Below, piece by piece: positions 9,577 through 43,706 of a stretch of DNA of 46,651 nucleotides. The stretch is from the NCBI GenBank assembly GCA_964367085.1, contig CAYIWL010000001.1, positions 1 through 46,651 of the forward strand, in the 5' to 3' direction. Position 1 is the stretch's first letter; every line of letters starts with the position of its first letter. The notes beneath the pieces are model-generated. The model was not told the origin of the DNA, made no database searches, and saw only the letters and a list, made by a program, of their open reading frames with translations. Source of the stretch: Candidatus Woesearchaeota archaeon (GTDB taxonomy: Archaea; Nanobdellota; Nanobdellia; SCGC-AAA011-G17; ARS1403). The position numbers and the translations under genes were made by a program.

Positions 9577-9664
9577 TTCAATTCTTTTTCTTCGGAGTGT
9601 TTTTAAGCTTTTTTAAAATCGGATAGAAAGGTTTAAATACATGAGTTCATGACATCATGAGAAA

Positions 9665-11018: not shown

Positions 11019-11114
11019 ATTTATCCTTTGAAAAAGCTAATTCTTAAATCTTTGGTTTATAGTAATGCATATTACTACATACCTTTAAATTTTGAAGTAG
11101 TGATAAATAATTAA

Positions 11115-11744: not shown

Positions 11745-11750
11745 TTCTTT

Positions 11751-26794: not shown

Positions 26795-27019
26795 ATGGCA
26801 ACTAAAACTATATCCATTACTGAAGAGGCTTATGACCGGCTGAATTTTAAAAAAGCAAAGAATGAAAGCTTTAGTGAAGTTATTAACAGGCTTACGAATA
26901 AAGTAAACATATTGGATTTTGCTGGAATTTTAAGCAAAGAAGAGTGGAAAAAACTAGAAGAAAATGTAAAAAAATCCAGATTATTGAGCCGGAAGAGATT
27001 ATCGAGGATTACATTATGA
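26795..27019 (+). CDS. vapB: VapB-type antitoxin (DUF217/COG1753-like)
   Basis: Motifs are KTISITEEAYDRLNFKKAKNESFSEVINRL and an ATGA overlap with the PIN gene. Confidence 0.65.
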   Translation: MATKTISITEEAYDRLNFKKAKNESFSEVINRLTNKVNILDFAGILSKEEWKKLEENVKKSRLLSRKRLSRITL

Positions 27020-27405
27020 TATTGGATACCACGGCGATTATTGATTTAATTAGAGGAGACAAAAATATCGAAGAGAAAATTAAATACTTAAATGAAGACA
27101 ATGTTGCTTTCTTATTTACTTCTATCTCAGTTTTTGAAATCTGGCAGGGTGCTGAAGATATTAATAATGAGAAAAAACTGGAAAAAATTCACTTTTTTCT
27201 GAATTCTTTTGGCTCTTTTGGCTTTGATATTCCCTCTGCAGAAGAGGCAGGGTCTATTCATGCAAAACTAAAACTTGAAGGAGAAATTATTGATCCAGAA
27301 GACAGCATGATTGCGGGCATTGCCAAAACTAATAATGAAACTGTTTTGACCAAAAATATAAAGCACTTTTCCAGAATCCCTGGATTGAAAGTTGAATCTT
27401 ATTGA
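27016..27405 (+). CDS. vapC: PIN-domain toxin (VapC-like)
   Basis: The N-terminus MILDTTAIIDLIRGD is PIN-like, with later SISVFEI and PEDSMIAGIA motifs. The start was moved to ATG 27016. Confidence 0.7.
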   Translation: MILDTTAIIDLIRGDKNIEEKIKYLNEDNVAFLFTSISVFEIWQGAEDINNEKKLEKIHFFLNSFGSFGFDIPSAEEAGSIHAKLKLEGEIIDPEDSMIAGIAKTNNETVLTKNIKHFSRIPGLKVESY

Positions 27406-27408: not shown

Positions 27409-27969
27409 TTAAATTAAAACTTTTTTTGTTTTTATGTTTTTAGTTATTTTTTTTATTTCTTCTAAGAATATATTTTCATATTCTGGTTGAATTTCTATTA
27501 ATCCAGGATTAAGCAAACCCCCTCCATATTTTTTAATCAATCCATACTTTCCTTTTTTCCCTTTTAAAGTGTAATGAAGTTTTACTTTTTCTTTTTTCTC
27601 TAGGTTTTTTAATTCATAAGATATTTGAATTTTTGGAGTTAACCCGAAAATCTTGGAAAAATAATCTTTTGTGATTAAACTTTTCCCGTAAAATAAAATA
27701 TTTTCTCTTGTAAAGTTTCCTTCATGAAAGAACGAATAAAGGTCAAAAGCATTTATATGAATAGGAAGTTCTGATTCTTTTTTTAGCTGGTTTTTAATTT
27801 CCTGAGATTGATTTAATTGTTTCTTTAATGGGATTTTCTGGAATATTACGGCTATGTCTACATCATTTGGAGTCGTTCCTTCTATCATGGAAGATCCAAA
27901 CTGGACCATATCCAGCACGTCTTTGTTATAATCTAATTTTAGTTTTTTCTGCCATAGTTTGTACGTCAT
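27409..27969 (-). CDS. Pol-beta-superfamily nucleotidyltransferase-domain protein
   Basis: The core motif is VQFGSSMIEGTTPNDVDIAVIF (the GS...DxD nucleotidyltransferase core). Confidence 0.55.
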   Translation of the reverse strand: MTYKLWQKKLKLDYNKDVLDMVQFGSSMIEGTTPNDVDIAVIFQKIPLKKQLNQSQEIKNQLKKESELPIHINAFDLYSFFHEGNFTRENILFYGKSLITKDYFSKIFGLTPKIQISYELKNLEKKEKVKLHYTLKGKKGKYGLIKKYGGGLLNPGLIEIQPEYENIFLEEIKKITKNIKTKKVLI

Positions 27970-28074
27970 ACTTGGTAAGAAAACTTTTTGTTGTTTATTA
28001 ATTTTTCTTATCAGGTAAGAAGAGTAAATTTAAATAGAACTTTATCTTCCTAAAATAAGTTAGCTAAATTAAAT

Positions 28075-28119
28075 TAATAAGCTTAATAAGCTTAATAAGC
28101 TAGATAAGCTTAGTAAGCT
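28075..28119. repeat. Five tandem 9-bp units (TAATAAGCT x3, AGATAAGCT, TAGTAAGCT) with degenerate TAAG-containing flanks
   Basis: Read directly. Further related units occur at 28056-28063 (TAAGTTAG) and 28120-28134. The array ends 18 nt before ATG 28138. Confidence 0.85.
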
Positions 28120-28137
28120 AACTTAGGTAAGTTATTA

Positions 28138-28275
28138 ATGACGAGAGTAAACATAGAAATTGTGGATGAGCTGCACAAGAAGGCTAAGCTAGCTGCTGTT
28201 CTGGAAAATAAAACCTTGATAGAATTCATTAATGAAGCTGTTAAGGAAAAGGTTGAAAGAGGGAAGAAGAAATGA
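28138..28275 (+). CDS. Ribbon-helix-helix (CopG/Arc-like) small protein, 45 aa, absent from the ORF track
   Basis: Hand translation gives MTRVNIEIVDELHKKAKLAAVLENKTLIEFINEAVKEKVERGKKK, which fits a beta-strand plus two helices. It forms an ATGA overlap with 28272. Confidence 0.55.
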   Translation: MTRVNIEIVDELHKKAKLAAVLENKTLIEFINEAVKEKVERGKKK

Positions 28276-29072
28276 TTGAACCATTTAGAAAAGCGTTCGC
28301 GGAAAGAGGGATTGGGAAAAGAGGAGTGAGCATGATTTTTGTCATTGCTGGGATTGCTGTTGTTGTAATCGCTGCTTTAGTTGTATTCTTTACAAGCGAA
28401 GATGTGCAAGTTGGAAGGAGGATAAGCAGTACACAGGTTGAGAGCGTAAGAGAATATGTTGGAGGATGTATTAACGAACAATTAATAGAAAAGTTAAATG
28501 AGAGAAGGATGTATGGCGGGAGAAGCAGTCTTGACTTTAGGCCTTCTAACAATCGGAATCATCCATTTTATAATTATAATGTTTTGAATAAGCCTACGGA
28601 TAATCTTCTAGATATTAACATTATAGGACGAGAAATTGCTAGTGACATTGAGGATTATATTAAAAACGATGGTTGTTCTTTAGATATTTTTAAAGATAAT
28701 TTCGAGATTGAGGAGCGAAAAGATTTTGTTCATGCTGAAGTTGATATATCTGATGATTTTGTTGTTTTAGGTGTTAATTACCCTGTCATTGTTAAGAAAG
28801 GTGGATCTGAAATAAAATTTGAGGCTTATGACATTACGTTGGAAGATAATTTTGGAGGGGTTTATGGTCTTGTGAGAGGCATTTTAAATGGATTTGCTGG
28901 AGGCAGTACCGATGATATATCTGATTATTGCTTTAATTATCGCGATTTGTTCTGTTTTTCAGATCCTAGAAATGATTTTACTTTGATTAAGATAGTGAAT
29001 ATAAAAGATCTCCCCTCTCCTGGGAATGTAGTTGATCCTGGATTGGAGTTTTCGTTTGTTGTTTCAAGATGA
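28272..29072 (+). CDS. Pilin-like protein with a class III-type signal peptide, paralog of 43852..45837
   Basis: The N-terminus is FAERGIGKRG-VSMIFVIAGIAVVVIAALVVF. The downstream regions also align with 43852 (REYVGGCINEQL versus VSYTNNCIEKI, GG, a conserved Cys, and V.V.I.DD blocks). Confidence 0.55.
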   Translation: MIEPFRKAFAERGIGKRGVSMIFVIAGIAVVVIAALVVFFTSEDVQVGRRISSTQVESVREYVGGCINEQLIEKLNERRMYGGRSSLDFRPSNNRNHPFYNYNVLNKPTDNLLDINIIGREIASDIEDYIKNDGCSLDIFKDNFEIEERKDFVHAEVDISDDFVVLGVNYPVIVKKGGSEIKFEAYDITLEDNFGGVYGLVRGILNGFAGGSTDDISDYCFNYRDLFCFSDPRNDFTLIKIVNIKDLPSPGNVVDPGLEFSFVVSR

Positions 29073-31063
29073 AAAAATTAATAATGTTCGGACTCTTTGT
29101 AGTTTTGGTTAGTTTGTTCAGCCCTTTTGTTAGTTCTCAATCTACTGGTTTTTGCTGCTTAGAAAAAAGTGGCTATTGCAGTCCAAATAAAGCAGAAAAT
29201 GATTGTAAAGACTCTGGCGGAATAATCCAGGGAGTTGGTGCTTGTTATGATGCGAATGGCATCTCTCCTTATAACTCATGCAGTTTAAGTGCATGTACAT
29301 TTTTTAATGGAAAGTGTAGTATCCAGTCTGTTGCCCGTTGTGAATCCGTATTAAAAGGGACTGTTAACACCGAACTCACTGCTGAGCAATGTAGCGAGAT
29401 GAATATTCCTGTTAACGTTGGAGGATGTTGTATTTCTTCAGATGAAAGTTGTGGCATTTCTTCAAGGAATCAATGTGATGGGAATTTTTTTGAAAAGAAC
29501 TGCAACCAAGTTTCGGAATGTCAAGAGAAAGGTGGGGAAGTGAGAGAAGGATGTAGTGAAGATGGTAGAAAAGTGATTAAGACGAACCAGTTTGGCATTC
29601 GAGAAATTGAAGAGCTTCCTGAAGATGAAGCATGTGTGATTGAGGATGGTAAAATCAAAAGAAAATCAACTTCTTGTAAAGTCGGAGAAAAAACTAAAGT
29701 CATTACATTTAATCTAGACTCTGGGCAGTCGTTGTTTAAGGAAGAGCCTATTATAGAGAAAATGCTTGGTGCTTTTAAAGGAGAAGGAGTAAATGAAAGA
29801 AAGAATGGAGAGAGTTGGTGCATTGTCTATGGAAGTAGTGATGGGGTTAATTGGGACTTGTATCCTAAATCTGCTTTGGAAGAGGATGACGATTTAAGAA
29901 TAAAATATTCTGCTGGACAAAGACATTATATTTATACTTGCAAAAATGGAGATGTAACTCCTGAGCCAGGAGACTTGTTTAGAGGTAATGGGGGGGTTTG
30001 TTTTCAGAATGATGAGATAAGATATTATTTAATTGGAACCCCCGATGAATGGGCTGCCACTTGTGATTATAAAGAATTTGGATATGGGTATGGCAGTGAT
30101 AATGATAAAAAATCTATGGAAGAAAAGATTAGATATTCTACTGCGGTAGTTTCAGGACATAGAGTTAGACAAAAGAAAGAGGTTAATTCTGGAATTATCA
30201 ATTATCAGAATGGTTTTAGCCAGGCTAAATTAGTTGATAATTATGAATTCACTAATGGATGTAAGAAGGAAGATAAAAAACCAAGATATCCTGTTGGTAA
30301 CCAATTTTATGATGTAGCAGTTACTCCTGTTAATGCTCCTACAGTAAAATGTGGGCAGTGTGGAGAGGGATTTTGGAATAGATGCGGAAGTAAGGAATGT
30401 TATAAGCTTGGAGATTGCAGTTATGGAGGAAGAGAACTTTGGAGAGGGGTTTTTGGAGGGATTATTCCAGACTGTGTTAAAGGAGCAATTATTGCTGAAG
30501 TTGCTTACTTAACTGCTGGCAGTGCGGGATTGCATGATTTCGGCGGATGGGGAAGTGTTCTTGAGGGTGGGGGGGCTGGTGCTGGGTCTGGTGCTGGTTT
30601 ACCTACTGTCCCTACAGGACCTCCAGCAGTATCTCCCTCAACAACTCCTTTCGTTCCGTTGGAAGAAAGTGGATCTGTTGCTGGGAATGTTGCTCAAAGT
30701 GCTGCACAGAAAGCTAGTGAACAGGCTGCGTATATCGTTGTTAAAGAAGGAGGACAGTCTACTGCACAAAAAGTCACGAATTATCTTATTGTTGCAGGTA
30801 CTGCCAATAACCTTGTAAGGGCAACTTTTGATAATGACAGAAATATTAGAGATGCTCCTTCTGTTGATGCTAATGTTGTTGGCAATATAAATGGCGGAGT
30901 GGGTGTTGACATTACGGAAACTACGTCGGATAATAATGGAAATATTTGGGGCAAAACGGCTGATGGGAGATTTGTTATGCTAAACTCCCCTGATGGTACA
31001 AATCCTGCTAGACTAACACGTGTGCAGAATACTTTGTCTCCGGAGGATATAGAGACGGAATAG
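29069..31063 (+). CDS. Cys-rich secreted protein with a Gly/Pro-rich linker and an SH3b-like C-terminal domain
   Basis: It has a signal peptide (LIMFGLFVVLVSLFSPFVSSQS) and many Cys in the first 470 aa. A hydrophobic/Gly-rich stretch and a PTVPTGPPAVSPSTTP linker lie at about 30480-30660. The segment NLVRATFDNDRNIRDAPSVDANVVGNINGGVGVDI...GNIWGKTADGRFVML (about 30808-31010) is SH3_3-like. Confidence 0.55.
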   Translation: MKKLIMFGLFVVLVSLFSPFVSSQSTGFCCLEKSGYCSPNKAENDCKDSGGIIQGVGACYDANGISPYNSCSLSACTFFNGKCSIQSVARCESVLKGTVNTELTAEQCSEMNIPVNVGGCCISSDESCGISSRNQCDGNFFEKNCNQVSECQEKGGEVREGCSEDGRKVIKTNQFGIREIEELPEDEACVIEDGKIKRKSTSCKVGEKTKVITFNLDSGQSLFKEEPIIEKMLGAFKGEGVNERKNGESWCIVYGSSDGVNWDLYPKSALEEDDDLRIKYSAGQRHYIYTCKNGDVTPEPGDLFRGNGGVCFQNDEIRYYLIGTPDEWAATCDYKEFGYGYGSDNDKKSMEEKIRYSTAVVSGHRVRQKKEVNSGIINYQNGFSQAKLVDNYEFTNGCKKEDKKPRYPVGNQFYDVAVTPVNAPTVKCGQCGEGFWNRCGSKECYKLGDCSYGGRELWRGVFGGIIPDCVKGAIIAEVAYLTAGSAGLHDFGGWGSVLEGGGAGAGSGAGLPTVPTGPPAVSPSTTPFVPLEESGSVAGNVAQSAAQKASEQAAYIVVKEGGQSTAQKVTNYLIVAGTANNLVRATFDNDRNIRDAPSVDANVVGNINGGVGVDITETTSDNNGNIWGKTADGRFVMLNSPDGTNPARLTRVQNTLSPEDIETE

Positions 31064-31069
31064 GAAAAT

Positions 31070-34000
31070 ATGAAAAGATTTAATTTAAAATTGATCTGCA
31101 TTTTGATTTTAATAGTCTTAAGTAGCTTTATTAGTATTCATAATGTTTATAGTTATGCTGGTGTTGATGATGCTATTGTTCTTGGAATCGGGTGCATTGG
31201 CGGAATGTTTTTTAGTGGTGGAAGTTGTAGGTTATATCAGCCACCTAAACAAAATTATGATTGTGGAGTTTGCAATGATAAAGATAAATTTCTATTTGGC
31301 AAATGTACTGAATATCAATGCAGGGCTATTGGAAGAGACTGTGTTTTTGTCCCTAGCCTAAAGGATTCGAGTGAAGGTTTCTGCCTTAATAAAAGAGAGC
31401 AGGCTTTGGTCGAGAATGAAATAGTTTCTTGTGGTGTTTTGGATATAGCGACTATGAGGATTAAAGAAGATGTTAGAAATATTTATGATGATTCAGTCAG
31501 TTCAGAATCTCAAAGTGACCAGAGTGATGGTTCGGCTCCTCCCGACATTACAGGAAACGCTCTAAATCCGGGGGGTAGAACAAGAAGTGTTGCTGCATCT
31601 GAAAACAGGGTTTTGAAAGGTTGCGATTTGGGTGATTTAGCAATAAATAAATTGTATGGGTTTATACTTACTACGAACAGGCCAGTTGAATGCAGGTTTA
31701 GTACGGTCCCTAGAAAAGAGGATCTGTTTACAGTAGATTTGTTCGATGGTGTCACAGAAGGGATGTCTGATGAGGAAGCTTATAGGATAATCTTAGAAAA
31801 TGTAGGTAATAGTAAGGTGAAGTTATTTACTGAGTTTCCTAATGGCGTAGATCATTTATGGCCTATTCATTTTAATGTTGCCGAATGGACTTCAGATAAT
31901 ATTAAGGAATGTAATGATGGGGGTTGTACTTTTTATGCTAGATGTGCTGATTTTGATGGGAGCAATGTCATGGAGGAAGATTTCATATTTACCTTCAACA
32001 TAGTTGATCCTGTTGATGACACTGAAGGCCCTAAGATTATTGACTTCAATCCTGAAAACAGCAATGGTCTACAAAGATATACATTGCCTTTAAGTGCTAA
32101 TGGAAATTTAAATGTTGAATTTCGTGTTTCTGATGAAACTGGAATTAAGGAATGTAGGTATAGCAGGAACGATGGAGGATATGGACAAATGACTTTGATT
32201 AATGACTGTAAACCTAATACGGATGATACTTCGCAATTTATCCAGCAATGCAATGTTGCTTTGAGTGAGGTTAGAGAAGGAGATAATTTATTTTATTTCA
32301 ATTGCATGGACACTGATGAAAAAGAGAACATTAATCCTACGAATTATGTCTATAATGTTGTAGGAGCAAGCAGTTTGTCTTTACAGGTTAAATCTCCTTT
32401 GGATGGGAGCACAATTGATGGAGTTAGTGATATATTAGAAGTTGTGACTTCTGGTGGTACTGATGGAACTGCTGTTTGCAAATATAGTTATTCTAGAATC
32501 GGTGGCGGGATTTCTGGTACTAATCTTGTTTTTGCTTCAGATACTCCTGGTTCTGAGGATAAACGAGAACACAAACAAGAAATTAATTTCTTAACCGAAG
32601 ATGCTGATTATATCTTAATTGTTGATTGTGAAGATTTACATGATAACCAAAATAAAGCCAGTGCAACTGTAAACTTTAAATTTGAGAAATATGTTGCTCC
32701 TCCTGAAGGCGCTGTTGTTTGCGAAGTGGATAATACGTGTCCTTTATGCAGCAAGGATAAATATTGTGCTGAGCTTGAGGGAGAAAAATATCTGTGCAAT
32801 CCTACTACGGATGTAAGACAGAGTTGCACTAATGGAGTTTGCTCTGCTGCAAATTGCCCTAGCACAACTAAAACTTATGGAGCATCTTATTGTTCATTAG
32901 ACCCAACTCCATTATGCTTGAGTGATCAGGATAACGATGAAATCGAGGATGCTTTAGACTGCAATGATAAGGATACTCAAACTGGCAGAACAATTGGACA
33001 GTGTATAGAAGCTTTATGTGAAACCTGTTCTGAAAATTCTGAAAGTGCTGCCAATGATGGGAATTGTGTTAAGAAAAGAGGTTGTGTTATTGATTGCAAT
33101 AATAACTACTTTGACCAGAATCAAGCTATATGCTTAAGCGCTAAAGATAATGGATGCAAGTGGAGTGGAGATGAAAATAAATGCGGATATGATTGTGCTG
33201 AAGGATATAATGATGATGATAGTAATTCTGTTTGCGTTCCCGAAGGCATTGTTGAGATTAAAGGAGAATTACCAGTTGGTTGCGAACTAAGCGAAGTTAA
33301 ATGGTATGATCTGGAAAATGGTAGGCCCTATTCTAATGCAGTTTCTGTAGATGAAGATACTGAGATTGCTTTGAAAGTTAGAGGTAATGAGCAATGTAAA
33401 GATGCAGATATTGAAATTGATTTATATGATTACGAAGAATTTTTGGGAGAGAGTGTTTATGAGCAGATTACCTTTATGGGTTTCCCGAAAGTATTGAAAT
33501 TAGATGAAAGAAGTGCGGGGGGAGGGTATTACAAAGTTGCGCTATTGACCTTGCCTTGGCAGGGAGATGCAAATGAAGAATATGAAGACGAAGATCCAGA
33601 ATTAGTTGCTGCGTTTGGTGATGTATTCAGCGCTTCTTCAAATGAGAAAACTCAGTTAATAAAGATAAATAAGATAACCACCCCTCCGGGTGCAAAAGCT
33701 GGAGATGCTTGTGAAACTGCTGATCAATGCGATGGAGTGTACGGTCCTGCTGGGGCTTTAGGTTTGACTTGTGTTAAAACTGAACAGAAATGTCCAACTA
33801 CCACTCCTCCGCCAAATCCTGTTCTTTGCGGAAATAATAATTTAGATGAAGGAGAGAGTTGCGATGGAAGCTTGCGGGATGGAAAAACTTGCGACGACTT
33901 TGATAATCAAGTGGGAACTTTACAATGTGCAAGTGATTGTAATGGATTTGATACAAGCTCTTGTAGAAATCCTGATCAACCAAGCCCTGGTGGAGGCTGT

Positions 34001-37000
34001 ACTGTAAAATTTGGAGATGTTGTTTGTCCTGGAATTTACGGCTATGAAGGCCAAAATCTTAAATGCTTTGATAAAGGTGATAATTGTCCTGCTGTAACAA
34101 CTGGCCAACCTCCCGGTGGCGGCGGGGTACCTGGAACTGGCACATTAAACATTGGAGAGATATCTTCTTTAAAAGGGAATATTGTGATAATTACTAATAA
34201 AGATGCTGAGTGTGAAGTCTATAACAGTAGGTCTTATGTTAGTTCAGCTAAAATAGGCAACATGCATAAAGAACCTATTGGAAGCAACACCCATCATTCA
34301 TATTCTTACGATGTTGTCGGTACTTATGATACGTGGTGGGTTAAATGTACAGCTGGTAGCGAAGTGGCTGATAAAAAAGTTCCAACATTTACTGTTACTT
34401 CTGGAGATACAAATGGCAACAATGTTCCTTTAAGAATTGACAGAGTGTTTGTTACTGAAGATAAAGAAGTAGTTGTATGGACTTCTGGTGGTAGAGGGAA
34501 TGATGGAAGTGCTGATTGTGCAGTTTATAGTAGTGGTGCATTTACTTCTAAAATTGCGGATATGACCTCTTTTGACTTAGGAGATGTTGATACTCATAGT
34601 TATAGTCATAATACTCCCGGAACTTATAACGGATGGTATGTCAGATGTGAAGATAATGGCGATGTGAAAACTCAGGTTGTTCCTAGCTTTACCATTGTTG
34701 AGGGTCATGATAATGACCGTGATAATGATGGAAAATTAAATACCGAGGATAATTGTTCTGATATTGCCAACGCTGATCAAAAAGACTCTGACAATGACGG
34801 GGTGGGAGATATCTGCGATACTGGAGAAGATCTGACTCTACCCGTTGTAAATATAATTGCTCCTATTGATGGTGCTGAATTAAGACAAAGTGATATTAGT
34901 GTTAATGCCGAGTTTAGCGATGAGACCATAACTAATTGCGAGGCTAAATTAGATCTTGGAAGATTTATAGCAATGGATGATGACAATAGGAATAATGGTA
35001 TTGCTTCTTATTCATTTGCAGAGGTTAATGTTGGACAACATACTATCCAAGTTTGGTGCAGAGATAGTAGCGGAAAAATTGGAAAGGATGAAGTAACATT
35101 TATGGTAATAAGTAGGGATCCCGGTACAGATAATAATCCTCCTACAATTGAGATAGAATCTCCACAGGATAATGCAGTATTAAGACAAAATTATGTTGAT
35201 GTTAGTGTCAGATTTAGCGATGAGACCAATACTGAATGCTCTGCAAGACTAGATTTTGGAACTTTTACAAAGATGAATGGAGGAGGGACAACCAGTGGCA
35301 TTGCAACACATAAATTTACCAATCTGCAAGTTAGAGAGCAACCTTATGGCCTTTCGGTAAGGTGCGTTGATGGAAATAATAATCCTGTTGAGAGAAGCGT
35401 AAGATTTGCTGTTGAAAACGATAATCCTAATAGCGATCATAATAACCCCGTCGTTGAAATTCAATCACCTTTGAACAATGTAGAGTTAGAAGAAGGTGAT
35501 GTTGAAGTTATTGTTGCATTTTCTGATGAAACAACAACGACATGTACTTTAAGACTTGATTCTGGAAGAGTATTACAGATGCTTGATGATGGACTGACAA
35601 GCGGAGTTGCATATTATAAACTGCTTGGTATGAAGGCTAGACAAAATCCTTATAATTTGTTAGCAGAGTGTAAAGATAGCAATAATAATATCGGAAGAGA
35701 TAGCATTAATTTTGTTGTGAGGAAAGAAGGAAGTGGAACTGAACCAGAAGAAAACTCCATTGACGTCTTTATTGACTTACCAAGGCAAACAGACAGATTT
35801 TCTGTTGGGGATAGCTTGTTATTGAGTGTGAGGAGTAGTGAAAGAGCCGATTGCAGATATATCGATTATAATTTAAGAGAAACTAAACCGGTTTATGATG
35901 ATATGATTGCCTTGAATTCTGTAGATAGTTCAGGAAAGAATCATGCTTTAAGGATAATTTATTCTGGAGATAAAGAAGGATTTTATGTGATGTGCAAGAA
36001 TGATGCAGGATCAGGGTATAATTTTGTTGAGGTGATTAGAAAAGCAGATGATGTTGATAAGCCATTGGGGATAAAAACTGTGAGTTCTGCAAGGGGCAGG
36101 ATTGTTGTTGAGACTATTGGCGGCAAATCAGATGATGGAAGTGCAAGTTGCAGCGTCTATAACAGCATTTCTATGATAGATTCAAATAAAGTTAGTGATT
36201 TAAGGAGCTCTGTGTTAAATGCAAAAACTTTTGCTCATGCATATACCCATACAACTCCTGGAACTTATAATGGGTGGTATGTGAGATGCGCTGATGATGA
36301 AGATGCGAGAGATATCCAATCAATGTCGATCGATGAGTTTACTGTTACTCCTGGCGGCGTTATTGTGGCAGATAAACCTTTGGAAATTGATAATCTAAAC
36401 TCTGATAGGGGGAACATTATTGCTATAACTAGTGGTGGCGGGGATGATGATGGAAGCGCCGATTGTGACTTGTTTGACCATATCAATTTGAGAAATAAAA
36501 TTATTGATTTGGAGTCGGTTAATTTAGGAAGAACTTTTGCTCATACTTACATTCATATAACTCCTGGAACTTATAGTGGATGGTATGTGAGATGCGCTGA
36601 TGATGAGAATGCAGATAGGATTAGAGGAAGAACTGTTCCTACTTTTACAGTAAGAGAAGGTGATGTTCCTGGAGAAATGATAGATGTGAGGATAACATCT
36701 CCATTATCAAATGCTGAGTTTAGCTCTGGTGAAAATGTCTTGCTGAGTGTTTCAACTAATGAAGCTGTTGACTGCAGGTATTCTTCTTACACTCTTGGCG
36801 GAGGGGAATTGCCTAATTATGATAATATGGAAATATTGAATCCTTCTACACAAGCTAAAACAATTCATGCAAAACAAATTGTTTATTCTGATGATAATGG
36901 ATATTATGTGAAGTGTGTTAATAATCTTAAATCTGGGGATAAGTTCGTTGTTGTAAAGAAAAAAACTGGGCAGGAAGAATGTCCTTATGACTGCAGCAGA

Positions 37001-38896
37001 AACAATAATTGCATTACACCGTGTAGTACAGATTCTAAATGCGTTGCAGATCTTGATTGCGCTTCTGTTTGCAATGCCGACGGTGATTGCGATGCTGGAG
37101 AAAATGTAAATAATTGTGCTGTTGATTGCACTCCCTGTGCCAATGGTGCTGTTAGAGATTGTGGCACTTCTGATATTGGATTGTGTGCTTTAGGCAGACA
37201 GACATGTGTAAATAATAGATGGAATGAATGCAGCGGGAATATAAATCCTATGGCTGAAATTTGCGGAGACAATTCTGATAATGATTGTGATTCAAGTATA
37301 GATGAGGGGTGTGCTTGCACTATTGGAGCTACTAGAGGTTGTGGCACCGACGTGGGAGTTTGTACAACTGGAATTCAACGCTGTATAAGTGGAGATTGGG
37401 ATGTTTGTAGTGGAGTTAAACCTCAACCTAATGAAGTATGCGGTAATAATTTAGATGATGATTGTGACGGGAATGAAGATGAAGGATGTGAAGAACCACC
37501 TGGACCACCAACTGGAGATTGTAGAATATCTAGAGCAATGTGGGTTAGTGAAGATGGAAGAAATCAGCTAAGTGGGGATATTAATGAAAACACAATTGTA
37601 AATGTTGCTTTGCAGGGACAAAATTGTAATGGACAACAAATAAGCTTAGAACTTTATGGGCTTGATGACAGAAATCTTTTAGGAAAAAGTTATGAAAGAA
37701 TTACTAATATAAATTTCCCACAGACGGTTACTTTTGAAGATCAAGGGGTTGCATTTGCTCAATGGACAGTTAGATGGATTGAAGATACTGGATTTACATT
37801 GGATAATGATCCTGAATTTATATTTAGAGCTGTTGGCACTGATTTAGAATCTCCTGTTATCAAAGTAAAAAAAATTGTAAGCAGTTCATCTGATACCGAT
37901 GGAGATGGGAGATTAAATGAAAATGATAATTGCCCGAGTGTTGCTAATGCAGATCAATTAGATTCTGATAATGATGGAATTGGAGATGCTTGTGATTCCC
38001 CGGGAGGTGGCGGAACTGGAGCTTCTAGCCTGATATTAGGAGAAGTAGGGCCGAGCGGAACTGTGCAGACAATAACGCCTGAACTCTTCATTAATTTAAG
38101 AGGAGGCCCAGATCAGAACGGAGTTGCAACTTGCCACTTTAGGAGAGGATTTACTCGAGAATTAGAGGAAAGACTTAATCCAAATGATTACGACGGAACA
38201 ATGGATTATGAAAGGGTTTTTGGCGGAACCACTAAATATAGTAAAACATTAAACAACATTAATGTCGGAAACCATGAATATTATATCCGATGCCAGGATT
38301 CTTTAGGAGCATTAACGCAGCTAAGAAGAATTAATTTTGCGGTTCAGATTCCTATCACTCAGCAACTTAACATTTTAGCTTCCGGACCTGATGGAGATTA
38401 TGGGAAGAGAAAAATTGAGATGGCTACTGCAACTAGCGGAGGTGTCGGTGACATTAGTTGTGTTTATACTGGCACTGCAATAGTCCCGTCTAGAATATCC
38501 GGAAGCAAGCTTGATCTTGGTTCAGGAGTTCTCGTGCATACCGCGAATGTAACTGTAAATGCTGATAGCACTTATAATATTAGGGTTGAGTGCAGTGATA
38601 GTGCCGGACAGACTGTGGCGCAGGATCATACTATAAGAGTTGTCGAGGATAGCGTTGCCCCTGAAATAAGGCAGATAATCAGCGAGGGTAGCAACAAATA
38701 TGTAACTGTTAGCGAGGAGGCTGACTGCGAAATTGCAACTGGAGACTCTGTCCCTGTTAATGAAAATCAATGGAAAGGAGTTGGCAAGGATGCAAGAAAC
38801 AGGGCTAAACATTTGATTGCTTTAAGTGGAAGCTATTACTTCAGATGTAAGGATATTTGGGATAATCAGATGAGCATTGTTAAGATTAATCCTTGA
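31070..38896 (+). CDS. Giant (2608 aa) extracellular multi-repeat adhesin-like protein
   Basis: The uninterrupted 7.8-kb ORF has an N-terminal signal/anchor. Two thrombospondin-type-3-like Ca-binding repeats lie at about 34709-34820 and 37889-37996. Three tandem 100-aa Ig-like repeats lie at about 34838-35730. Four repeats of about 100 aa with a C...W[YW]V[RK]C signature lie at 34138-34705 and 36059-36661. Two Cys-rich repeats ending in DNDCD..DEGC lie at 37133-37489. Confidence 0.8.
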   Translation: MKRFNLKLICILILIVLSSFISIHNVYSYAGVDDAIVLGIGCIGGMFFSGGSCRLYQPPKQNYDCGVCNDKDKFLFGKCTEYQCRAIGRDCVFVPSLKDSSEGFCLNKREQALVENEIVSCGVLDIATMRIKEDVRNIYDDSVSSESQSDQSDGSAPPDITGNALNPGGRTRSVAASENRVLKGCDLGDLAINKLYGFILTTNRPVECRFSTVPRKEDLFTVDLFDGVTEGMSDEEAYRIILENVGNSKVKLFTEFPNGVDHLWPIHFNVAEWTSDNIKECNDGGCTFYARCADFDGSNVMEEDFIFTFNIVDPVDDTEGPKIIDFNPENSNGLQRYTLPLSANGNLNVEFRVSDETGIKECRYSRNDGGYGQMTLINDCKPNTDDTSQFIQQCNVALSEVREGDNLFYFNCMDTDEKENINPTNYVYNVVGASSLSLQVKSPLDGSTIDGVSDILEVVTSGGTDGTAVCKYSYSRIGGGISGTNLVFASDTPGSEDKREHKQEINFLTEDADYILIVDCEDLHDNQNKASATVNFKFEKYVAPPEGAVVCEVDNTCPLCSKDKYCAELEGEKYLCNPTTDVRQSCTNGVCSAANCPSTTKTYGASYCSLDPTPLCLSDQDNDEIEDALDCNDKDTQTGRTIGQCIEALCETCSENSESAANDGNCVKKRGCVIDCNNNYFDQNQAICLSAKDNGCKWSGDENKCGYDCAEGYNDDDSNSVCVPEGIVEIKGELPVGCELSEVKWYDLENGRPYSNAVSVDEDTEIALKVRGNEQCKDADIEIDLYDYEEFLGESVYEQITFMGFPKVLKLDERSAGGGYYKVALLTLPWQGDANEEYEDEDPELVAAFGDVFSASSNEKTQLIKINKITTPPGAKAGDACETADQCDGVYGPAGALGLTCVKTEQKCPTTTPPPNPVLCGNNNLDEGESCDGSLRDGKTCDDFDNQVGTLQCASDCNGFDTSSCRNPDQPSPGGGCTVKFGDVVCPGIYGYEGQNLKCFDKGDNCPAVTTGQPPGGGGVPGTGTLNIGEISSLKGNIVIITNKDAECEVYNSRSYVSSAKIGNMHKEPIGSNTHHSYSYDVVGTYDTWWVKCTAGSEVADKKVPTFTVTSGDTNGNNVPLRIDRVFVTEDKEVVVWTSGGRGNDGSADCAVYSSGAFTSKIADMTSFDLGDVDTHSYSHNTPGTYNGWYVRCEDNGDVKTQVVPSFTIVEGHDNDRDNDGKLNTEDNCSDIANADQKDSDNDGVGDICDTGEDLTLPVVNIIAPIDGAELRQSDISVNAEFSDETITNCEAKLDLGRFIAMDDDNRNNGIASYSFAEVNVGQHTIQVWCRDSSGKIGKDEVTFMVISRDPGTDNNPPTIEIESPQDNAVLRQNYVDVSVRFSDETNTECSARLDFGTFTKMNGGGTTSGIATHKFTNLQVREQPYGLSVRCVDGNNNPVERSVRFAVENDNPNSDHNNPVVEIQSPLNNVELEEGDVEVIVAFSDETTTTCTLRLDSGRVLQMLDDGLTSGVAYYKLLGMKARQNPYNLLAECKDSNNNIGRDSINFVVRKEGSGTEPEENSIDVFIDLPRQTDRFSVGDSLLLSVRSSERADCRYIDYNLRETKPVYDDMIALNSVDSSGKNHALRIIYSGDKEGFYVMCKNDAGSGYNFVEVIRKADDVDKPLGIKTVSSARGRIVVETIGGKSDDGSASCSVYNSISMIDSNKVSDLRSSVLNAKTFAHAYTHTTPGTYNGWYVRCADDEDARDIQSMSIDEFTVTPGGVIVADKPLEIDNLNSDRGNIIAITSGGGDDDGSADCDLFDHINLRNKIIDLESVNLGRTFAHTYIHITPGTYSGWYVRCADDENADRIRGRTVPTFTVREGDVPGEMIDVRITSPLSNAEFSSGENVLLSVSTNEAVDCRYSSYTLGGGELPNYDNMEILNPSTQAKTIHAKQIVYSDDNGYYVKCVNNLKSGDKFVVVKKKTGQEECPYDCSRNNNCITPCSTDSKCVADLDCASVCNADGDCDAGENVNNCAVDCTPCANGAVRDCGTSDIGLCALGRQTCVNNRWNECSGNINPMAEICGDNSDNDCDSSIDEGCACTIGATRGCGTDVGVCTTGIQRCISGDWDVCSGVKPQPNEVCGNNLDDDCDGNEDEGCEEPPGPPTGDCRISRAMWVSEDGRNQLSGDINENTIVNVALQGQNCNGQQISLELYGLDDRNLLGKSYERITNINFPQTVTFEDQGVAFAQWTVRWIEDTGFTLDNDPEFIFRAVGTDLESPVIKVKKIVSSSSDTDGDGRLNENDNCPSVANADQLDSDNDGIGDACDSPGGGGTGASSLILGEVGPSGTVQTITPELFINLRGGPDQNGVATCHFRRGFTRELEERLNPNDYDGTMDYERVFGGTTKYSKTLNNINVGNHEYYIRCQDSLGALTQLRRINFAVQIPITQQLNILASGPDGDYGKRKIEMATATSGGVGDISCVYTGTAIVPSRISGSKLDLGSGVLVHTANVTVNADSTYNIRVECSDSAGQTVAQDHTIRVVEDSVAPEIRQIISEGSNKYVTVSEEADCEIATGDSVPVNENQWKGVGKDARNRAKHLIALSGSYYFRCKDIWDNQMSIVKINP

Positions 38897-38913: not shown

Positions 38914-38943
38914 TACAAATATTTATAAACTAATTTGTATTAT
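38914..38943 (+). repeat. Copy 1 of a perfect 30-bp repeat, a palindrome-flanked TATA box with no annotated gene downstream
   Basis: The sequence is TACAAATATTTATAAACTAATTTGTATTAT, identical to 39014-39043 and exactly 100 bp upstream of it. The arms TACAAAT/ATTTGTA flank TTTATAAA. Confidence 0.9.
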
Positions 38944-39013: not shown

Positions 39014-39043
39014 TACAAATATTTATAAACTAATTTGTATTAT
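39014..39043 (+). promoter_or_regulatory. Copy 2 of the 30-bp repeat, the likely promoter/operator of the 39053 ATPase gene
   Basis: TATA TTTATAAA at 39022-39029 lies 31 nt upstream of ATG 39053, inside 8-bp inverted arms ATACAAAT/ATTTGTAT. Confidence 0.5.
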
Positions 39044-39052: not shown

Positions 39053-40306
39053 ATGGCACAGATAACCAAAGATATTCTGATACTACAGAAGCGAGAACTG
39101 GATAAGCGAATTAAAGAAAAATATATCGACAGAGGAAACGAGCTAAAAGGGTTAAACAGCAATATTATCAAAGTTATTATCGGGCCTAGAAGGGCCGGAA
39201 AATCCTTCTTTGCCATTCATACTTTGGATAAATATGGAAATTTTGGCTATGTTAATTTTGACGACGAGAAACTAATTGAGACGGAAAACTATGATGAGGT
39301 AATAACTGCTGTGAACTCTGTTTATAATAATCCTAAAGTGATATTATTTGACGAGATCCAGAATCTTGCTAAATGGGAATTGTTTGTGAACCGGCTACAA
39401 AGGCAAGATTATAACTTAGTAATTACTGGGAGCAACGCCCAACTTCTGAGCAAAGAATTAGCTACACATTTAACTGGAAGGTGTTTTTTAACATATATCT
39501 TTCCATTTTCATTTAAGGAATATCTCCAATTTGAGGAGGAGCCAACAACTACGGAAATAAAAGAGAAATTGTCTAATTATCTAATTTATGGGGGGTATCC
39601 AGAGCCGCTGCTCAAAAATTTGGGCTATGGAGATTATTTATCAACTTTGTTTGGCTCAATAATCTATAAAGATATTGTGAAGAGGTATAAGATAAGGTCA
39701 GCAGACGAAATAGAAAATTTAGCCTTTTATCTCTTATCAAACATTGCAACTGAGTATTCTTATCATTCTTTAACGAAAATAAGTGGCATTAAAAGCTCGC
39801 ATACAATTCAAAAATATCTAGGATATTTGGAGGAAGCGCTTATTTTCTTTAGCTTGAACCGATTTTCTTATAAAGTTAAAGAGCAGCTTGCATCCAATAA
39901 AAAGATTTATTGCATTGATAACGGCTTTATCACGGCTAAGTCATTTAAATTAAGCCCGGATATTGGAAAACTTTATGAAAATCTAGTAGCTATTGAATTA
40001 AAGAAAAAAGAGATGAAGAATAAACTAAGTGTTTTTTATTGGAAAAATCCACAACAGGAAGAAGTAGATTTTGTACTTAAAAAAGGGGCAAAAGTTAAGC
40101 AGCTTATCCAAGTTTGCTTTAATATCAGCAATGTGAAAACGAAGGATAGGGAAATTCGCGCTTTGCTTAAGGCAAGCCGAGAGCTAAAATGCCAAGACCT
40201 TCTTATTATCACAGAAAATTATGATAATGAAAAAAATATTGAATGGTTCGGAATAAAAAGAAATATTAAGTTTTTACCTTTATGGAAATGGTTGCTTGAA
40301 AAATGA
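39053..40306 (+). CDS. AAA_14 plus DUF4143 family ATPase
   Basis: Walker A is IIGPRRAGKSFF and Walker B is VILFDEIQNL. GSNAQLL follows, then a DUF4143-like middle region and a C-terminal EEVDFVL motif. Confidence 0.75.
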   Translation: MAQITKDILILQKRELDKRIKEKYIDRGNELKGLNSNIIKVIIGPRRAGKSFFAIHTLDKYGNFGYVNFDDEKLIETENYDEVITAVNSVYNNPKVILFDEIQNLAKWELFVNRLQRQDYNLVITGSNAQLLSKELATHLTGRCFLTYIFPFSFKEYLQFEEEPTTTEIKEKLSNYLIYGGYPEPLLKNLGYGDYLSTLFGSIIYKDIVKRYKIRSADEIENLAFYLLSNIATEYSYHSLTKISGIKSSHTIQKYLGYLEEALIFFSLNRFSYKVKEQLASNKKIYCIDNGFITAKSFKLSPDIGKLYENLVAIELKKKEMKNKLSVFYWKNPQQEEVDFVLKKGAKVKQLIQVCFNISNVKTKDREIRALLKASRELKCQDLLIITENYDNEKNIEWFGIKRNIKFLPLWKWLLEK

Positions 40307-40797
40307 AACGGGGACAAACTCAGCAAATATTTGTATGGATTCTTGTTTTAGTCGTTGCTGTTTCAATTTTATTTTTTGGGATTAAGCTGATAAAGAAAAG
40401 CGAAGGGTTGAAAGATGAAGCTTTGATTGTGAGATTCTTTGATAATTTAGATAAAAAATTAAGCCAGTATTATTATCTCGATAAAGGCAGTTCGGGAGAA
40501 GAGAAGTTTTTATTGCCAAATGATGTGAAAGAGGTTTGCTTTATTAACTCCGATATTAGTGTTCTGGCCGAGTTTACAAATACTCAAGTTGATGAAGATA
40601 AAAAGGATTATTTTTTCCAGTTAAAAGATTTTAGTGATGTCTTTATCCTGCCTAATAATCTCTATCAAGGAAATAGGTACAATTTAACTATGGTATTTAC
40701 TTCTATAGACAACCCAAAATGCTTAAATGTTGCAAATGGAATCTTAACTGTTAATCTAGAGAATAAAGGGGTAACTGAAGGTGTTGAGATCAAATAA
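40303..40797 (+). CDS. Small pilin-like protein with a class III signal peptide
   Basis: The N-terminus is MKRG-QTQQIFVWILVLVVAVSILFFGI. It forms an ATGA overlap with the ATPase stop. Confidence 0.55.
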   Translation: MKRGQTQQIFVWILVLVVAVSILFFGIKLIKKSEGLKDEALIVRFFDNLDKKLSQYYYLDKGSSGEEKFLLPNDVKEVCFINSDISVLAEFTNTQVDEDKKDYFFQLKDFSDVFILPNNLYQGNRYNLTMVFTSIDNPKCLNVANGILTVNLENKGVTEGVEIK

Positions 40798-40939
40798 AAA
40801 TGGAAAAATGATGACGGATAAAGAACTAATTGTTTCAACGGAACTCCTAAATCAGAAAAGGACGAGCTGGTCGCAAAATGCGGCTACCTTAAATCACTTA
40901 GGATCACAAATTGTTATACTAGAAAATAGGTAGAAAGAT

Positions 40940-41836
40940 ATGACAAAAGAATTAACTGTACTAAATCAAGAAGATATTAAAAGTAAAATTTATACTATTC
41001 ATGGATTACCGGTAATGCTTGATGAAGACTTAGCAGAGCTTTATCAGGTTAAGACAGGAAGGTTGAATGAGCAAGTGAAAAGAAATATTGAGAGATTTCC
41101 TAGAGAATTTATGTTTCAATTAAATGAAAATGAATATAATATCTTGATATCGCAAATTGCGACTTCAAGTTCAAAGTGGGGAGGAAGAAGGAAACTGCCA
41201 TATGTTTTTACTGAACAAGGAGTAGCTATGCTTTCTGGGGTCCTAAATAGTAACATTGCGATAACGGTAAGTATTCAAATAATGAATGCTTTTGTGGCAA
41301 TGAGGAGATTTATTTCTCTTAATTCCCAATTATTCCAGAGAATGGATGTAATTGAGAAGAAGCAGATTGAAAGTGATAAAAGAATTGATAAGGTATTTGA
41401 TATAATTGAAAGTAAAAATATCAAACCCGATAAGGGAATATTTTTTAATGGACAGATTTTTGATGCGTATATGTTCTTTTCGGATATAATAAGAACTGCA
41501 GATAATTCAATTGTTCTAATTGATAACTACATTGATGATTCTGTTTTAACACTCTTTAATAAAAGAAAAAAGAATGTGAAAGTTACAATATTTACTAAAG
41601 AACTATCAAAGCAATTATCCTTAGATTTAAAAAAATATAATTCTCAATACCCTTCCATTGAAGTTAAAAAATTCAAGTTATCGCATGATCGGTTTATAAT
41701 AATCGATAATAAGAACGTATACCATTTTGGAGCATCATTAAAAGATTTGGGAAAAAAGTGGTTTGCATTTTCCAAGTTTGATAATGAGACATTTTTCTTA
41801 CTCGATAAGTTGAAAAAAGAGGTACTACATGAATAA
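40940..41836 (+). CDS. ORF6N (KilA-N-like) domain protein with a C-terminal HDRFIIID-containing domain
   Basis: Motifs are IYTIHGLPVMLDEDLAELYQVKTGRLNEQVKRNIERFPREFMFQL...GGRRKLPYVFTEQGVAMLSGVL, and at the C-terminus SHDRFIIIDNKNVYHFGASLKDLGKKWFAFSKF. Confidence 0.7.
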   Translation: MTKELTVLNQEDIKSKIYTIHGLPVMLDEDLAELYQVKTGRLNEQVKRNIERFPREFMFQLNENEYNILISQIATSSSKWGGRRKLPYVFTEQGVAMLSGVLNSNIAITVSIQIMNAFVAMRRFISLNSQLFQRMDVIEKKQIESDKRIDKVFDIIESKNIKPDKGIFFNGQIFDAYMFFSDIIRTADNSIVLIDNYIDDSVLTLFNKRKKNVKVTIFTKELSKQLSLDLKKYNSQYPSIEVKKFKLSHDRFIIIDNKNVYHFGASLKDLGKKWFAFSKFDNETFFLLDKLKKEVLHE

Positions 41837-42746
41837 AAGAGGAATGGCGATACCATTTGACTGGATGTTTTCTTTAGTTGCAGGAATCTTAATCTTTTCC
41901 TTTTTAATTTACTTTGCAGTGCAGCACACTGACTTGTTTGGAAAAATAACTACAAGGGTTGTTGCTGAAGAACTCGACGTTCTCTTTTCAGGTTATGAAA
42001 CCACCGAATCTAAAAGTGTTTTGGACTTTAAGAAAGAGGTTGAATTGAAATTTTCATGCAGCACAGGACAGGGACAGTCTTTTACAGTTAACAACAAAGA
42101 AGGAAAGAATTTGTGGGGGAAAATAATCTTTGCTCCTAAAGAAATTAAAAGCGACAAAGTAAATGTTGCTACGATGAGCTGGGATGTTCCTTTTAGGGCT
42201 GCTAACTTTATTTATTTGTGGGATAGGAAATACAATTTTGAGAACCCTCCCAACTTAGACATTTTGAGGTCTATTGATTCAACCAATGGAGATACAATTA
42301 TATTTAGATTTGTTGACCATGTAGATGAAAGTCCTGTATGTAGTGAGGATGGCAAAATAATCTATTATATAATTGAAGGGGGATATTATCATGGTTATGT
42401 CTGTTTCGCTAAAAACGAAGAAAGTGTTAAGTTCTTTGGAGAAGCAATGATGGTTGGTGCTATTTTTACCGACGATAGAGATGCGCTTATTTGTGCAAAT
42501 AAACTTGCAGTTAACAGATTAGAGATTATAAATGAAGTTTATAAAGAAAAGGCAAATAAACTTATAGAATCTGCAGATCAATTTAACTATCTGTGCAGCT
42601 ATGGCGAAGCCATGTACAATCCTAGTGCAGTAAACAATTTTGATCTAGGAAATGATCTTAACATCCAGTTTGGCTATGATGATGTTAACGTAGTTGAAAC
42701 TTCAAATGAAAATTTAATAAGGGAGGGGTGTCCAAGTGTCTACTAG
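41829..42746 (+). CDS. Pilin-like protein with a class III-type signal peptide
   Basis: The N-terminus is MNKRG-MAIPFDWMFSLVAGILIFSFLIYF. It overlaps the ORF6N gene by 8 nt. Confidence 0.5.
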   Translation: MNKRGMAIPFDWMFSLVAGILIFSFLIYFAVQHTDLFGKITTRVVAEELDVLFSGYETTESKSVLDFKKEVELKFSCSTGQGQSFTVNNKEGKNLWGKIIFAPKEIKSDKVNVATMSWDVPFRAANFIYLWDRKYNFENPPNLDILRSIDSTNGDTIIFRFVDHVDESPVCSEDGKIIYYIIEGGYYHGYVCFAKNEESVKFFGEAMMVGAIFTDDRDALICANKLAVNRLEIINEVYKEKANKLIESADQFNYLCSYGEAMYNPSAVNNFDLGNDLNIQFGYDDVNVVETSNENLIREGCPSVY

Positions 42747-43661: not shown

Positions 43662-43693
43662 TTAGTAAGTTAGTAAGTTAGTAAGTTACTAAG
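43662..43693. repeat. Four tandem 8-bp units (TTAGTAAG x3, TTACTAAG), preceded by a partial TTAG
   Basis: Read directly. The array begins 1 nt after the stop of 43209..43661 and ends 5 nt before the TATA-like box at 43699. Confidence 0.9.
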
Positions 43694-43698
43694 AAAAC

Positions 43699-43706
43699 TT
43701 TATATA
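43699..43706 (+). promoter_or_regulatory. TATA-box-like TTTATATA for the RHH gene at 43730
   Basis: It lies 31 nt upstream of ATG 43730. Confidence 0.4.

Follow-up and report, generated by a model that had tools for sequence, protein, structure and literature searches.

How are surface-structure genes controlled in DPANN archaea, uncultivated ultra-small episymbionts in which the regulation of structures thought to mediate host contact is almost unstudied? The question is raised by a 46,651-nt stretch of DNA from Candidatus Woesearchaeota archaeon (GenBank assembly GCA_964367085.1, contig CAYIWL010000001.1, positions 1 to 46,651), which is referred to here as the window. It contains two groups of genes for pilin-like and other secreted proteins, each headed by an array of short tandem TAAG repeats and a very small gene: a 45-amino-acid (aa) gene in module A, whose product we call RHH-A, and a 41-aa gene, ORF-B, in module B. 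A reading made from the letters of this DNA alone (the sequence-only reading) had proposed that both small proteins are ribbon-helix-helix (RHH) repressors with the arrays as their operators, and it had located every element of the two modules exactly or to within 1 to 2 nt. By our analysis, RHH-A is an unannotated, probable newcomer to a well-known class, that of RHH proteins which regulate their own operons through tandem-box operators, and its gene belongs to a surface-structure locus that is conserved in DPANN. Autorepression through cooperative binding to the TAAG arrays is a prediction, binding included, to which we assign a probability of about 0.55. Coordinates of all features are collected in Table 1.

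The 45-aa gene is real. Its family comprises 42 homologous clusters (90% identity) with lengths of 43 to 52 aa and 14 invariant residues, and its TGA stop codon overlaps the ATG of the next gene at 28272 (ATGA). For every relative of the 266-aa protein encoded by that next gene (43 to 81% identity), a 45-aa gene has been called that overlaps by the same 4 bp. Compared with the window sequence, the ratio of nonsynonymous to synonymous differences per site (pN/pS) was 0.06 to 0.25 for RHH-A, with pS between 0.26 and 1.08, and 0.12 to 0.18 for ORF-B. For both small genes pN was 0.03 to 0.19, with synonymous sites near saturation, and each of the two proteins was far more conserved than the larger protein to which it is coupled. 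The expectation that these open reading frames (ORFs) would be conserved in relatives was therefore borne out: length, position, and the 4-bp overlap are kept under strong purifying selection. Neither gene was in the ORF track of the sequence-only reading. The gene caller used on the source contig missed the 45-aa gene, which is called on related contigs. The metagenome-assembled genomes (MAGs) that hold RHH-A relatives belong to Candidatus Woesearchaeota or Nanoarchaeota (DPANN), and many are groundwater derived. The 266-aa protein was also matched on a contig of a 0.1-µm-filter metagenome from the Hainich aquifer (ENA ERZ1292627), and we take the window to be DPANN DNA from that groundwater. 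The matching contig shares the giant protein with the window and also encodes an archaeal PCNA and a VapB/PIN pair. A GC-rich Woesearchaeota MAG (L024, positions 3900 to 4190) contains two tandem RHH-A-like genes of 51% identity without a TAAG array, followed by way of a 4-bp overlap by a gene for a 764-aa protein without a signal peptide.

The structure of RHH-A was predicted with AlphaFold2 at a predicted local distance difference test (pLDDT) score of 90.7. Residues 1 to 9 are extended and are followed by helices at residues 10 to 22 and 27 to 43; the model is that of a monomer, in which the strand of an RHH protein cannot form. Foldseek matches in the PDB were RHH domains, with query-normalized TM scores (TMq) of 0.64 to 0.91 (mostly 0.7 to 0.9) and probabilities of up to 1.00. 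They included CopA_SO, the DNA-bound RHH domain of PutA, AtaR, VapB, Arc, CopG, SvtR, and AmrZ. Pfam matches of the family were all to RHH families and all below threshold: ParD in 25 of 28 members, HicB in 24 of 28, ParG in 16 of 28 (best E value of 7e-6, the strongest similarity in the family), the SvtR-type 56B_RHH in 3 of 28, Omega_Repress in one member (E value of 0.0036), and RHH_10. The window protein itself lies below every Pfam gathering score (for ParD, 18.6 bits versus 27.3), and a sequence-profile search of the PDB gave weak matches to SvtR (2kel, E value of 0.43) and ParD. In the presumptive strand, polar residues (R3, N5, and E7) and core residues (V4, I6, and V8) alternate, all of them invariant or nearly so, and T26, where helix 2 begins, does not vary. 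By analogy with known RHH proteins, R3, N5, E7, and T26 would make the DNA and phosphate contacts. On the evidence of the predicted structure, the fold search, and the coherent Pfam matches, we regard the assignment of RHH-A as an RHH protein as settled. As modeled, it would consist of a minimal RHH domain alone, for which DNA binding is the only plausible activity.

The best Pfam likeness is to antitoxins of the RHH type (ParD, HicB, TacA, and VapB), and the 4-bp overlap with the next gene is also toxin-antitoxin-like. Both features would suit a type II toxin-antitoxin pair, with RHH-A as the antitoxin and the array as its operator. We give this explanation almost no credence and rejected it on gene content. 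The downstream gene is pilin-like or encodes a large secreted protein in every relative and never belongs to a toxin family, RHH-A with its 45 aa has no C-terminal toxin-binding extension, and a separate, canonical VapB/PIN pair (26795 to 27019 and 26944 to 27405) is located just 5' of module A.

Throughout the close clade, the array of module A comes after a conserved TATA box and before the first start codon, as judged by promoter consensus. A TTTATATA-type box was found 84 to 123 nt 5' of the start codon of RHH-A, or of the first ORF, in 17 of 19 relatives. In archaea, the distance from the TATA box to the transcription start site is about 23 to 26 nt. Because of this established distance, the conserved AATAAGTTA box was placed at the start site; the predicted start of operon A is inside this box, about 23 nt past TATA. 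In relatives, a conserved AATAAGTTA(TATA) box follows the TATA box by about 15 to 20 nt, where an archaeal start is expected. The predicted leader of operon A extends over about 77 nt (28056 to 28133) and contains TAAG boxes at 9-bp phasing; the end of the array, "...TTAAGTTATT," is kept in relatives. Module A was found again in at least 15 related genomes, and array and RHH-A gene co-occur at every close-clade locus examined. A lag of 9 gave the top autocorrelation in 13 of 19 related leaders, with TAAG(C/T)T units, and 9 was the commonest distance from one TAAG to the next (20 of 51 intervals). Close-clade leaders contain 4 to 8 TAAG per 90 nt, compared to a background of 0.40.

Three related loci (L002, L003, and L008) have a further 330 bp between the array and the RHH-A gene, with two tiny ORFs for predicted membrane proteins in it, and the array stays at the operon head beside the promoter. 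It therefore belongs to the promoter or 5' end and not to the RHH-A start codon. The two ORFs, of about 38 and 58 aa (L002, 95 to 395; L003, 2524 to 2820; also present in L008), are absent from the window and from L005, so that the operon leaders differ by an indel of about 330 bp. A second repeat family occupies the same divergent intergenic region as array A: L003 (2304 to 2402) has three copies of the start region (catacttggtaaga...) of the divergent gene on the minus strand, and the window (27966 to 28024) has one full and one partial copy. A gene for a Pol-beta-type nucleotidyltransferase (27409 to 27969, minus strand) adjoins module A upstream.

The three top-scoring short-period tandem repeats of the window, as determined with Tandem Repeats Finder (TRF), are TAAG arrays, namely, arrays A and B and a third one at 3481 to 3504 that the sequence-only reading did not contain. 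All three have a TAAG(C/T)T core on the plus strand. TAAG at 8-bp phasing yielded 4 hits in the window compared to 0.55 expected, and TAAG at 9-bp phasing yielded 5 hits compared to 0.70 expected; in both cases none of 100 shuffles reached these counts, and every phased hit fell inside one of the three arrays. Across 249 kb of nonredundant related DNA, 14 of 16 clusters of TAAG words were located at the heads of modules A and B, whereas block shuffles gave about 0.85. The arrays are conserved and site specific. With five boxes at 9 bp in array A and four at 8 bp in array B, both contain the minimum of three short boxes at 7- to 9-bp phasing by which we defined a tandem-box operator, and both exceed 100 shuffles.

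Repeats of this kind could also be neutral slippage microsatellites in AT-rich intergenic DNA that are close to the small genes by coincidence. Such an origin would fit the variable copy number (5 TAAGC units in the window versus 3 in L005), the three perfect copies of the third array, and the frequency of generic 9-bp TAAGYT repeats in unrelated metagenome DNA. A metagenome-wide scan for TAAGYT-N3-TAAGYT-N3-TAAGYT gave at least 120 loci; among the matches listed, nearly all were unrelated microsatellites of other organisms and two, from one species, had RHH-A downstream, so the scan is uninformative on array specificity. We consider slippage very improbable, and conservation largely refutes it. 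The same box persists in the same place across relatives with saturated synonymous sites (pS of 0.5 to 1.0), array B is nearly invariant beside a randomized spacer, and the TAAG clusters of related DNA concentrate at module heads far beyond the shuffled expectation given above.

RHH-A and its array can be compared with several characterized systems. ParG of plasmid TP228, the closest of them, represses its own operon, parFG, by cooperatively coating the operator O_F. This operator has eight degenerate boxes of 4 bp, some direct and some inverted, which are set apart by AT-rich spacers of 4 bp and each take up one dimer (PMC3130281). ParG is a small RHH protein like RHH-A, and its operator shares with array B the exact tetramer/8-bp register and the presence of an inverted unit. 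Because of this register, we propose that RHH-A would coat array A in a similar manner, with one base more per unit. The differences are also clear. ParG boxes are ACTC and those described here are TAAG, array A is phased at 9 bp, and RHH-A has no flexible N-terminal tail and a short basic C-terminal tail. Unlike the ParG/parH system, module A has no ParA/ParF partner and no partition role, and it has an archaeal promoter with a TATA box and a B recognition element (BRE), with the array downstream of TATA. A function in partition or as a centromere was considered and rejected, as no ParA-type ATPase is found beside RHH-A, and the AAA_14/DUF4143 and ATPase_2 neighbors are unrelated insertions absent in some relatives.

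Cooperative binding of RHH dimers to tandem sites that control promoters is also a property of omega from inc18 plasmids (7-bp heptads) and of MetJ (8-bp metboxes). The match of one RHH-A family member to Omega_Repress represents a likeness to the former; MetJ differs from RHH-A in having an S-adenosylmethionine corepressor domain. The arrays differ from omega and MetJ sites in box and phasing, and they are associated with an archaeal leader instead of overlapping -35/-10 elements. Like RHH-A, SvtR (SIRV1 ORF56B) and pRN1 ORF56 are RHH proteins of about 45 to 56 aa in an archaeal context, and they regulate structural-protein genes. The likeness to this type extends to fold matches (TMq of 0.79 for 2kel and 0.88 for 3ft7), with sequence similarity below family thresholds. 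These proteins are, however, virus or plasmid encoded, and they are not known to have a tandem TAAG array or to be coupled to a pilin operon. In the passages of the CdrS report covered here, CdrS is described as a widely conserved archaeal single-domain RHH protein of about 55 aa, encoded by the first gene of the operon that it regulates and cotranscribed with ftsZ2 (PMC7439475). It differs from RHH-A in that it is reported there to be absent from DPANN, belongs to RHH_1 (PF01402), and controls cell division; those passages describe no repeat array (PMC7439475). A term search of a 2026 survey of archaeal type IV filament systems found no occurrence of "ribbon" and no passage on a DPANN-relevant regulator, and our literature search found no description of the RHH-A or ORF-B family.

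We propose that two promoters would drive the surface-structure locus, and that a repeat operator and a very small leading gene would belong to each of them. Repression by blocking the start site or the early transcribed region is a well-known mode in archaea. The transcript of operon A would start in the AATAAGTTA box and read through the TAAG leader. RHH-A dimers would bind one box per dimer and coat array A cooperatively in the style of ParG, omega, and MetJ. Such coverage, from about -4 to +74 relative to the predicted start, would block the start site or the early transcribed region and thereby lead to autorepression, and the negative feedback would reach the translationally coupled pilin-like and adhesin genes. 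Array B could serve RHH-A as a further target or ORF-B as an operator, and its location upstream of the BRE would be compatible with activation as well as with exclusion of transcription factor B (TFB) and TATA-binding protein (TBP).

Module B is conserved in five relatives. Its array is nearly invariant and always terminates at the BRE: relatives contain 7 to 9 T-W-A-S tetramers, the run of which ends exactly at GAAAAC-TTTATATA, and their TAAG spacings of 4, 8, 12, or 20 are all multiples of 4. The spacer from TATA to ATG is 23 nt in the window and 22 to 23 nt in relatives, its length kept and its sequence free. Such a layout is characteristic of leaderless transcripts in archaea, predicted here, with an element under constraint immediately 5' of the BRE. 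Across relatives, the array begins 0 to about 30 nt past the upstream stop codon. Because this distance varies, it is the promoter to which array B is tied and not the 3' end of the gene before it. The ATGA overlaps, the TTTATATA at 43699 to 43706, and the basic C termini of both small proteins are as the sequence-only reading had described them. Its view of the modules as duplicates does not hold, as their geometry differs, with array A downstream of TATA and array B upstream and abutting the BRE. The modules are about 12 to 16 kb apart on one contig both in the window and in JACPIN010000021.1, and matches to RHH-A and to the 661-aa protein family whose longest contigs agree in length suggest that they may be linked in three further relatives too.

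The product of ORF-B is less easily classified than RHH-A. An exhaustive HMMER search gave 91 representative clusters at 50% identity, with the consensus MKKYLLLIEDExLWExFKxxIxKDINTEI, and the gene is real in the same sense as that of RHH-A. The AlphaFold2 model (pLDDT of 79) has coil at residues 1 to 10 and helices at 11 to 20 and 25 to 39, an order of elements compatible with RHH. No Pfam or NCBIfam family was assigned, and a profile search of the PDB returned nothing relevant. Among family members, Arc was matched in 1 of 33 (E value of 4e-4) and the unrelated RPAP3_C weakly in 15 of 33. In a single hhalign comparison with Arc, DINTEI was aligned on SVNSEI with an E value of 0.007, which could be a hint of an RHH protein. 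The putative N-terminal strand, KYLLLV, is almost wholly hydrophobic. Homology between RHH-A and ORF-B was rejected: BLASTP found no similarity between them, and hhalign aligned 21 C-terminal columns, the basic helix, at a probability of 39%. Thus, of the claim that both small proteins are RHH repressors, the part on the 45-aa protein stands by structure prediction, fold search, and coherent weak Pfam matches, and the part on the 41-aa protein found no backing in Foldseek, nor in Pfam beyond the one Arc match, which is below threshold.

A distant relative (L152, 2720 to 3004) encodes a 65-aa protein in place of ORF-B, with a 4-bp overlap onto a gene of the 661-aa family. Its matches are all below threshold and nearly all to winged-helix or helix-turn-helix families (Fe_dep_repress, TrmB, MarR, Rrf2, and IclR). 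The leader past TATA contains different, palindromic repeats, including the 18-bp perfect palindrome AAGCTCTTTAAAGAGCTT. Judged by sequence, this looks like a nonhomologous replacement of the small first gene. A small putative binder with other repeats would fit a slot for a regulator plus its cognate operator, in what is a single case.

The third array starts one base past the stop codon of a secreted-protein gene (2533 to 3480), a paralogue of the gene at 1580 to 2530, and is followed by a T-rich tract. The next genes (3605 to 4846 and 4834 to 6081) presumably encode LAGLIDADG-like and EndoQ-like proteins, an assumption from sequence reading that has no Pfam support. The location of this array bears on the possibility that the repeats act as RNA, in which phased UAAG in the unstructured 5' leader (array A) or in an intercistronic or 3' region (array B and third array) would be the site of an RNA-binding protein or influence translation or transcript stability. 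TAAG is on the sense strand of the flanking operons in all arrays, array A lies between TATA and the start codon and is hence transcribed, and the starts of array B and of the third array in the window coincide with an upstream stop codon or follow it closely. We nevertheless consider an RNA-level role quite improbable. A structured leader was rejected, with 0 pairs in RNAalifold, a z score of -1.49 for the fold of the window leader, and no Rfam match, which leaves an unstructured RNA site only. Furthermore, the anchoring of array B to BRE and TATA at a variable distance from the stop codon indicates a promoter role at the DNA level, and RHH proteins are DNA binders.

Several observations weigh against autorepression by RHH-A at the arrays. 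Distant RHH-A relatives (L017, L019, L021, and L022) have 0 to 1 TAAG in the leader, and L014 has a 9-bp TAAAnnAAC-like array, again with 0 to 1 TAAG. The strand residues T2, R3, V4, N5, I6, and E7 are invariant even though the TAAG boxes fade in these relatives. This leaves two options, a recognition rule less strict than "TAAG" or a different binder. Covariation of repeat and RHH sequences, a check that the sequence-only reading had suggested, consequently gave no clean support: the strand residues do not vary, and distant relatives have few or no TAAG. ORF-B could not be shown to belong to the RHH proteins or to any known DNA-binding fold; Foldseek found no RHH domain for it in the PDB (one match, E value of 7) and nothing in BFVD. 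The third array has no adjacent small ORF. All arrays are strand asymmetric, with TAAG on the sense strand, and all are possibly transcribed, which makes a role at the RNA level possible. Finally, the TATA and start-site assignments are by archaeal consensus.

Much of this evidence would also suit an explanation in which the arrays are genuine cis-regulatory DNA bound by another factor, such as an external regulator, a chromatin protein, or basal factors, with the tiny proteins acting otherwise, for instance ORF-B as a pilin assembly or chaperone factor. Such a binder could account for TAAG boxes at three sites, one of them without a small gene, for a box type common to A and B although the small proteins are unrelated, for distant RHH-A relatives that lack TAAG despite identical beta-strand residues, and for the missing DNA-binding fold assignment of ORF-B. 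We regard this explanation as possible but unlikely. RHH-A is a single minimal RHH domain with DNA binding as its only plausible role, array and RHH-A gene co-occur at all close-clade loci examined, and RHH autoregulators are as a rule encoded by the first gene, beside their operators (PMC3130281). Autorepression by RHH-A at array A is therefore the reading that we prefer, with the pairing of protein and array and the sign of regulation as predicted parts of it.

Table 1. Features of the two modules, the third array, and the associated genes in the window
Feature	Position	Strand	Basis or comment
Third array, ATAAGTTT in three perfect copies, 8-bp phasing	3481-3504	+	TRF; absent from the sequence-only reading
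TATA box TTTAAATA of operon A (putative), A-rich BRE-like stretch just 5'	28029-28036	+	Archaeal consensus
First conserved box, AATAAGTTA, at predicted transcription start	28054-28062	+	Among the best-conserved blocks of alignment A4
Array A, TTAATAAGC, TAAG boxes at 9-bp phasing	28074-28119	+	TRF period 9, 5.1 copies, 86% matches, score 71
Proximal inverted repeat AACTTA-GG-TAAGTT, array end, 4 nt before ATG	28120-28133	+	Read from sequence
RHH-A, 45-aa RHH gene	28138-28275	+	Homologues, selection, fold
266-aa pilin-like protein, ...GKRG followed by VSMIFVIAGIAVVV, ATGA-coupled to RHH-A	28272-29072	+	ORF list, signal-peptide scan, orthologues with 4-bp overlap
Remainder of sub-operon A: 664-aa Cys-rich secreted protein and 2608-aa giant surface protein (Big_7, TSP_3)	29069-38896	+	Gene order kept in L002, L003, L007
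Four pilin-like genes, class III signal peptides	40303-40797, 41829-42746, 42736-43212, 43209-43661	+	Signal-peptide scan
ORF6N gene interrupting the pilin-like block	40940-41836	+	Within 40303-43661
Array B, TTAGTAAG in four copies, T-W-A-S tetramers, TAAG at 8 bp, last unit inverted (TTACTAAG)	43660-43693	+	TRF period 8, 4.2 copies, 96% matches, score 61
BRE-like GAAAAC and TATA box TTTATATA (43699-43706) of sub-operon B (putative)	43693-43706	+	No or almost no variation in 6 of 6 loci
ORF-B, 41-aa conserved protein, predicted leaderless	43730-43855	+	91 clusters, consensus, pN/pS
661-aa pilin-like protein, MNIFAKRGIGKRG followed by QVTLFIIAGVVILF, ATGA-coupled to ORF-B	43852-45837	+	Orthologues overlap by -4 (5 of 6 loci) or -8

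The products of the genes at 28272 and 43852 both carry a class III signal peptide (KRG followed by VSMIFVIAGIAVVVIAALVVFF and by QVTLFIIAGVVILFAAFLVGY, respectively), in which a short charged leader with [KR]G at its end precedes some 20 hydrophobic residues. The N-terminal "RGIGKRG" that the sequence-only reading had taken for an unusual shared motif is this prepilin-type signal peptide, and RGIG is missing in orthologues, the N termini of which read MILGNKRG, MKRGQ, or MIFWGKRGQ; [KR]G and a hydrophobic stretch alone are conserved. The two proteins had also been called paralogs. Their N-terminal 68 or so residues are alike (34% identity, E value of 6e-9) and consist of the signal peptide, a hydrophobic helix, and a short further segment, but the similarity stops there. 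The gene after RHH-A is pilin-like in close relatives and encodes a large secreted Cys-rich protein in distant ones, the 4-bp overlap being usually kept. The giant 2608-aa protein with Big_7 and TSP_3 repeats is encoded at 31070 to 38896.

Synteny around module B is kept in five relatives (L027 to L031), where a giant protein, four pilin-like genes, and a gap are followed by genes for proteins of 640 to 660 aa, 1,200 to 1,370 aa (SLT or Amidase_3), and about 260 aa. At about 7950 to 12000 in these loci, the 1,200- to 1,370-aa protein with its cell-wall lytic domain follows the 650-aa gene. The combination of a giant protein and a protein with a lytic domain is suggestive of a host-contact apparatus. 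No Pfam family of an assembly ATPase, platform protein, or prepilin peptidase was detected among the window ORFs scanned, in a nonexhaustive scan of a fragmentary genome.

A wider possibility is a DPANN-specific switch for a host-attachment apparatus composed of the pilin-like filament, the giant adhesin, and the cell-wall lytic enzyme. One box type would then serve autorepression at A and activation at B, ORF-B would represent a new DNA-binding or coregulatory mini-fold, and the box copy number would tune or phase-vary expression. We consider this combination rather improbable and put it forward as speculation.

RHH proteins that coat tandem boxes represent a textbook mechanism, and the advance made here lies in scope and annotation and not in principle. 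Two unannotated, widely conserved microprotein families are defined, genes overlooked by routine callers are flagged, and a concrete, testable cis element is described at both promoters of a conserved surface locus of about 25 kb. The 45-aa and 41-aa peptides, combined with DNA probes of 40 to 80 bp, could make it possible to test transcription control biochemically in this lineage for the first time.

The window is AT rich, with a GC content of about 31 to 39%, and contains no tRNA genes. Between the two modules, a gene for an AAA_14/DUF4143 ATPase (39053 to 40306) is preceded just upstream by a direct repeat of about 30 bp, tacaaatatttataaactaatttgtattat (38914 to 38943 and 39014 to 39043). 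This gene and the ORF6N gene are absent from three syntenic loci (L028, L029, and L031), and by this comparison both look like insertions in the pilin-like cluster.

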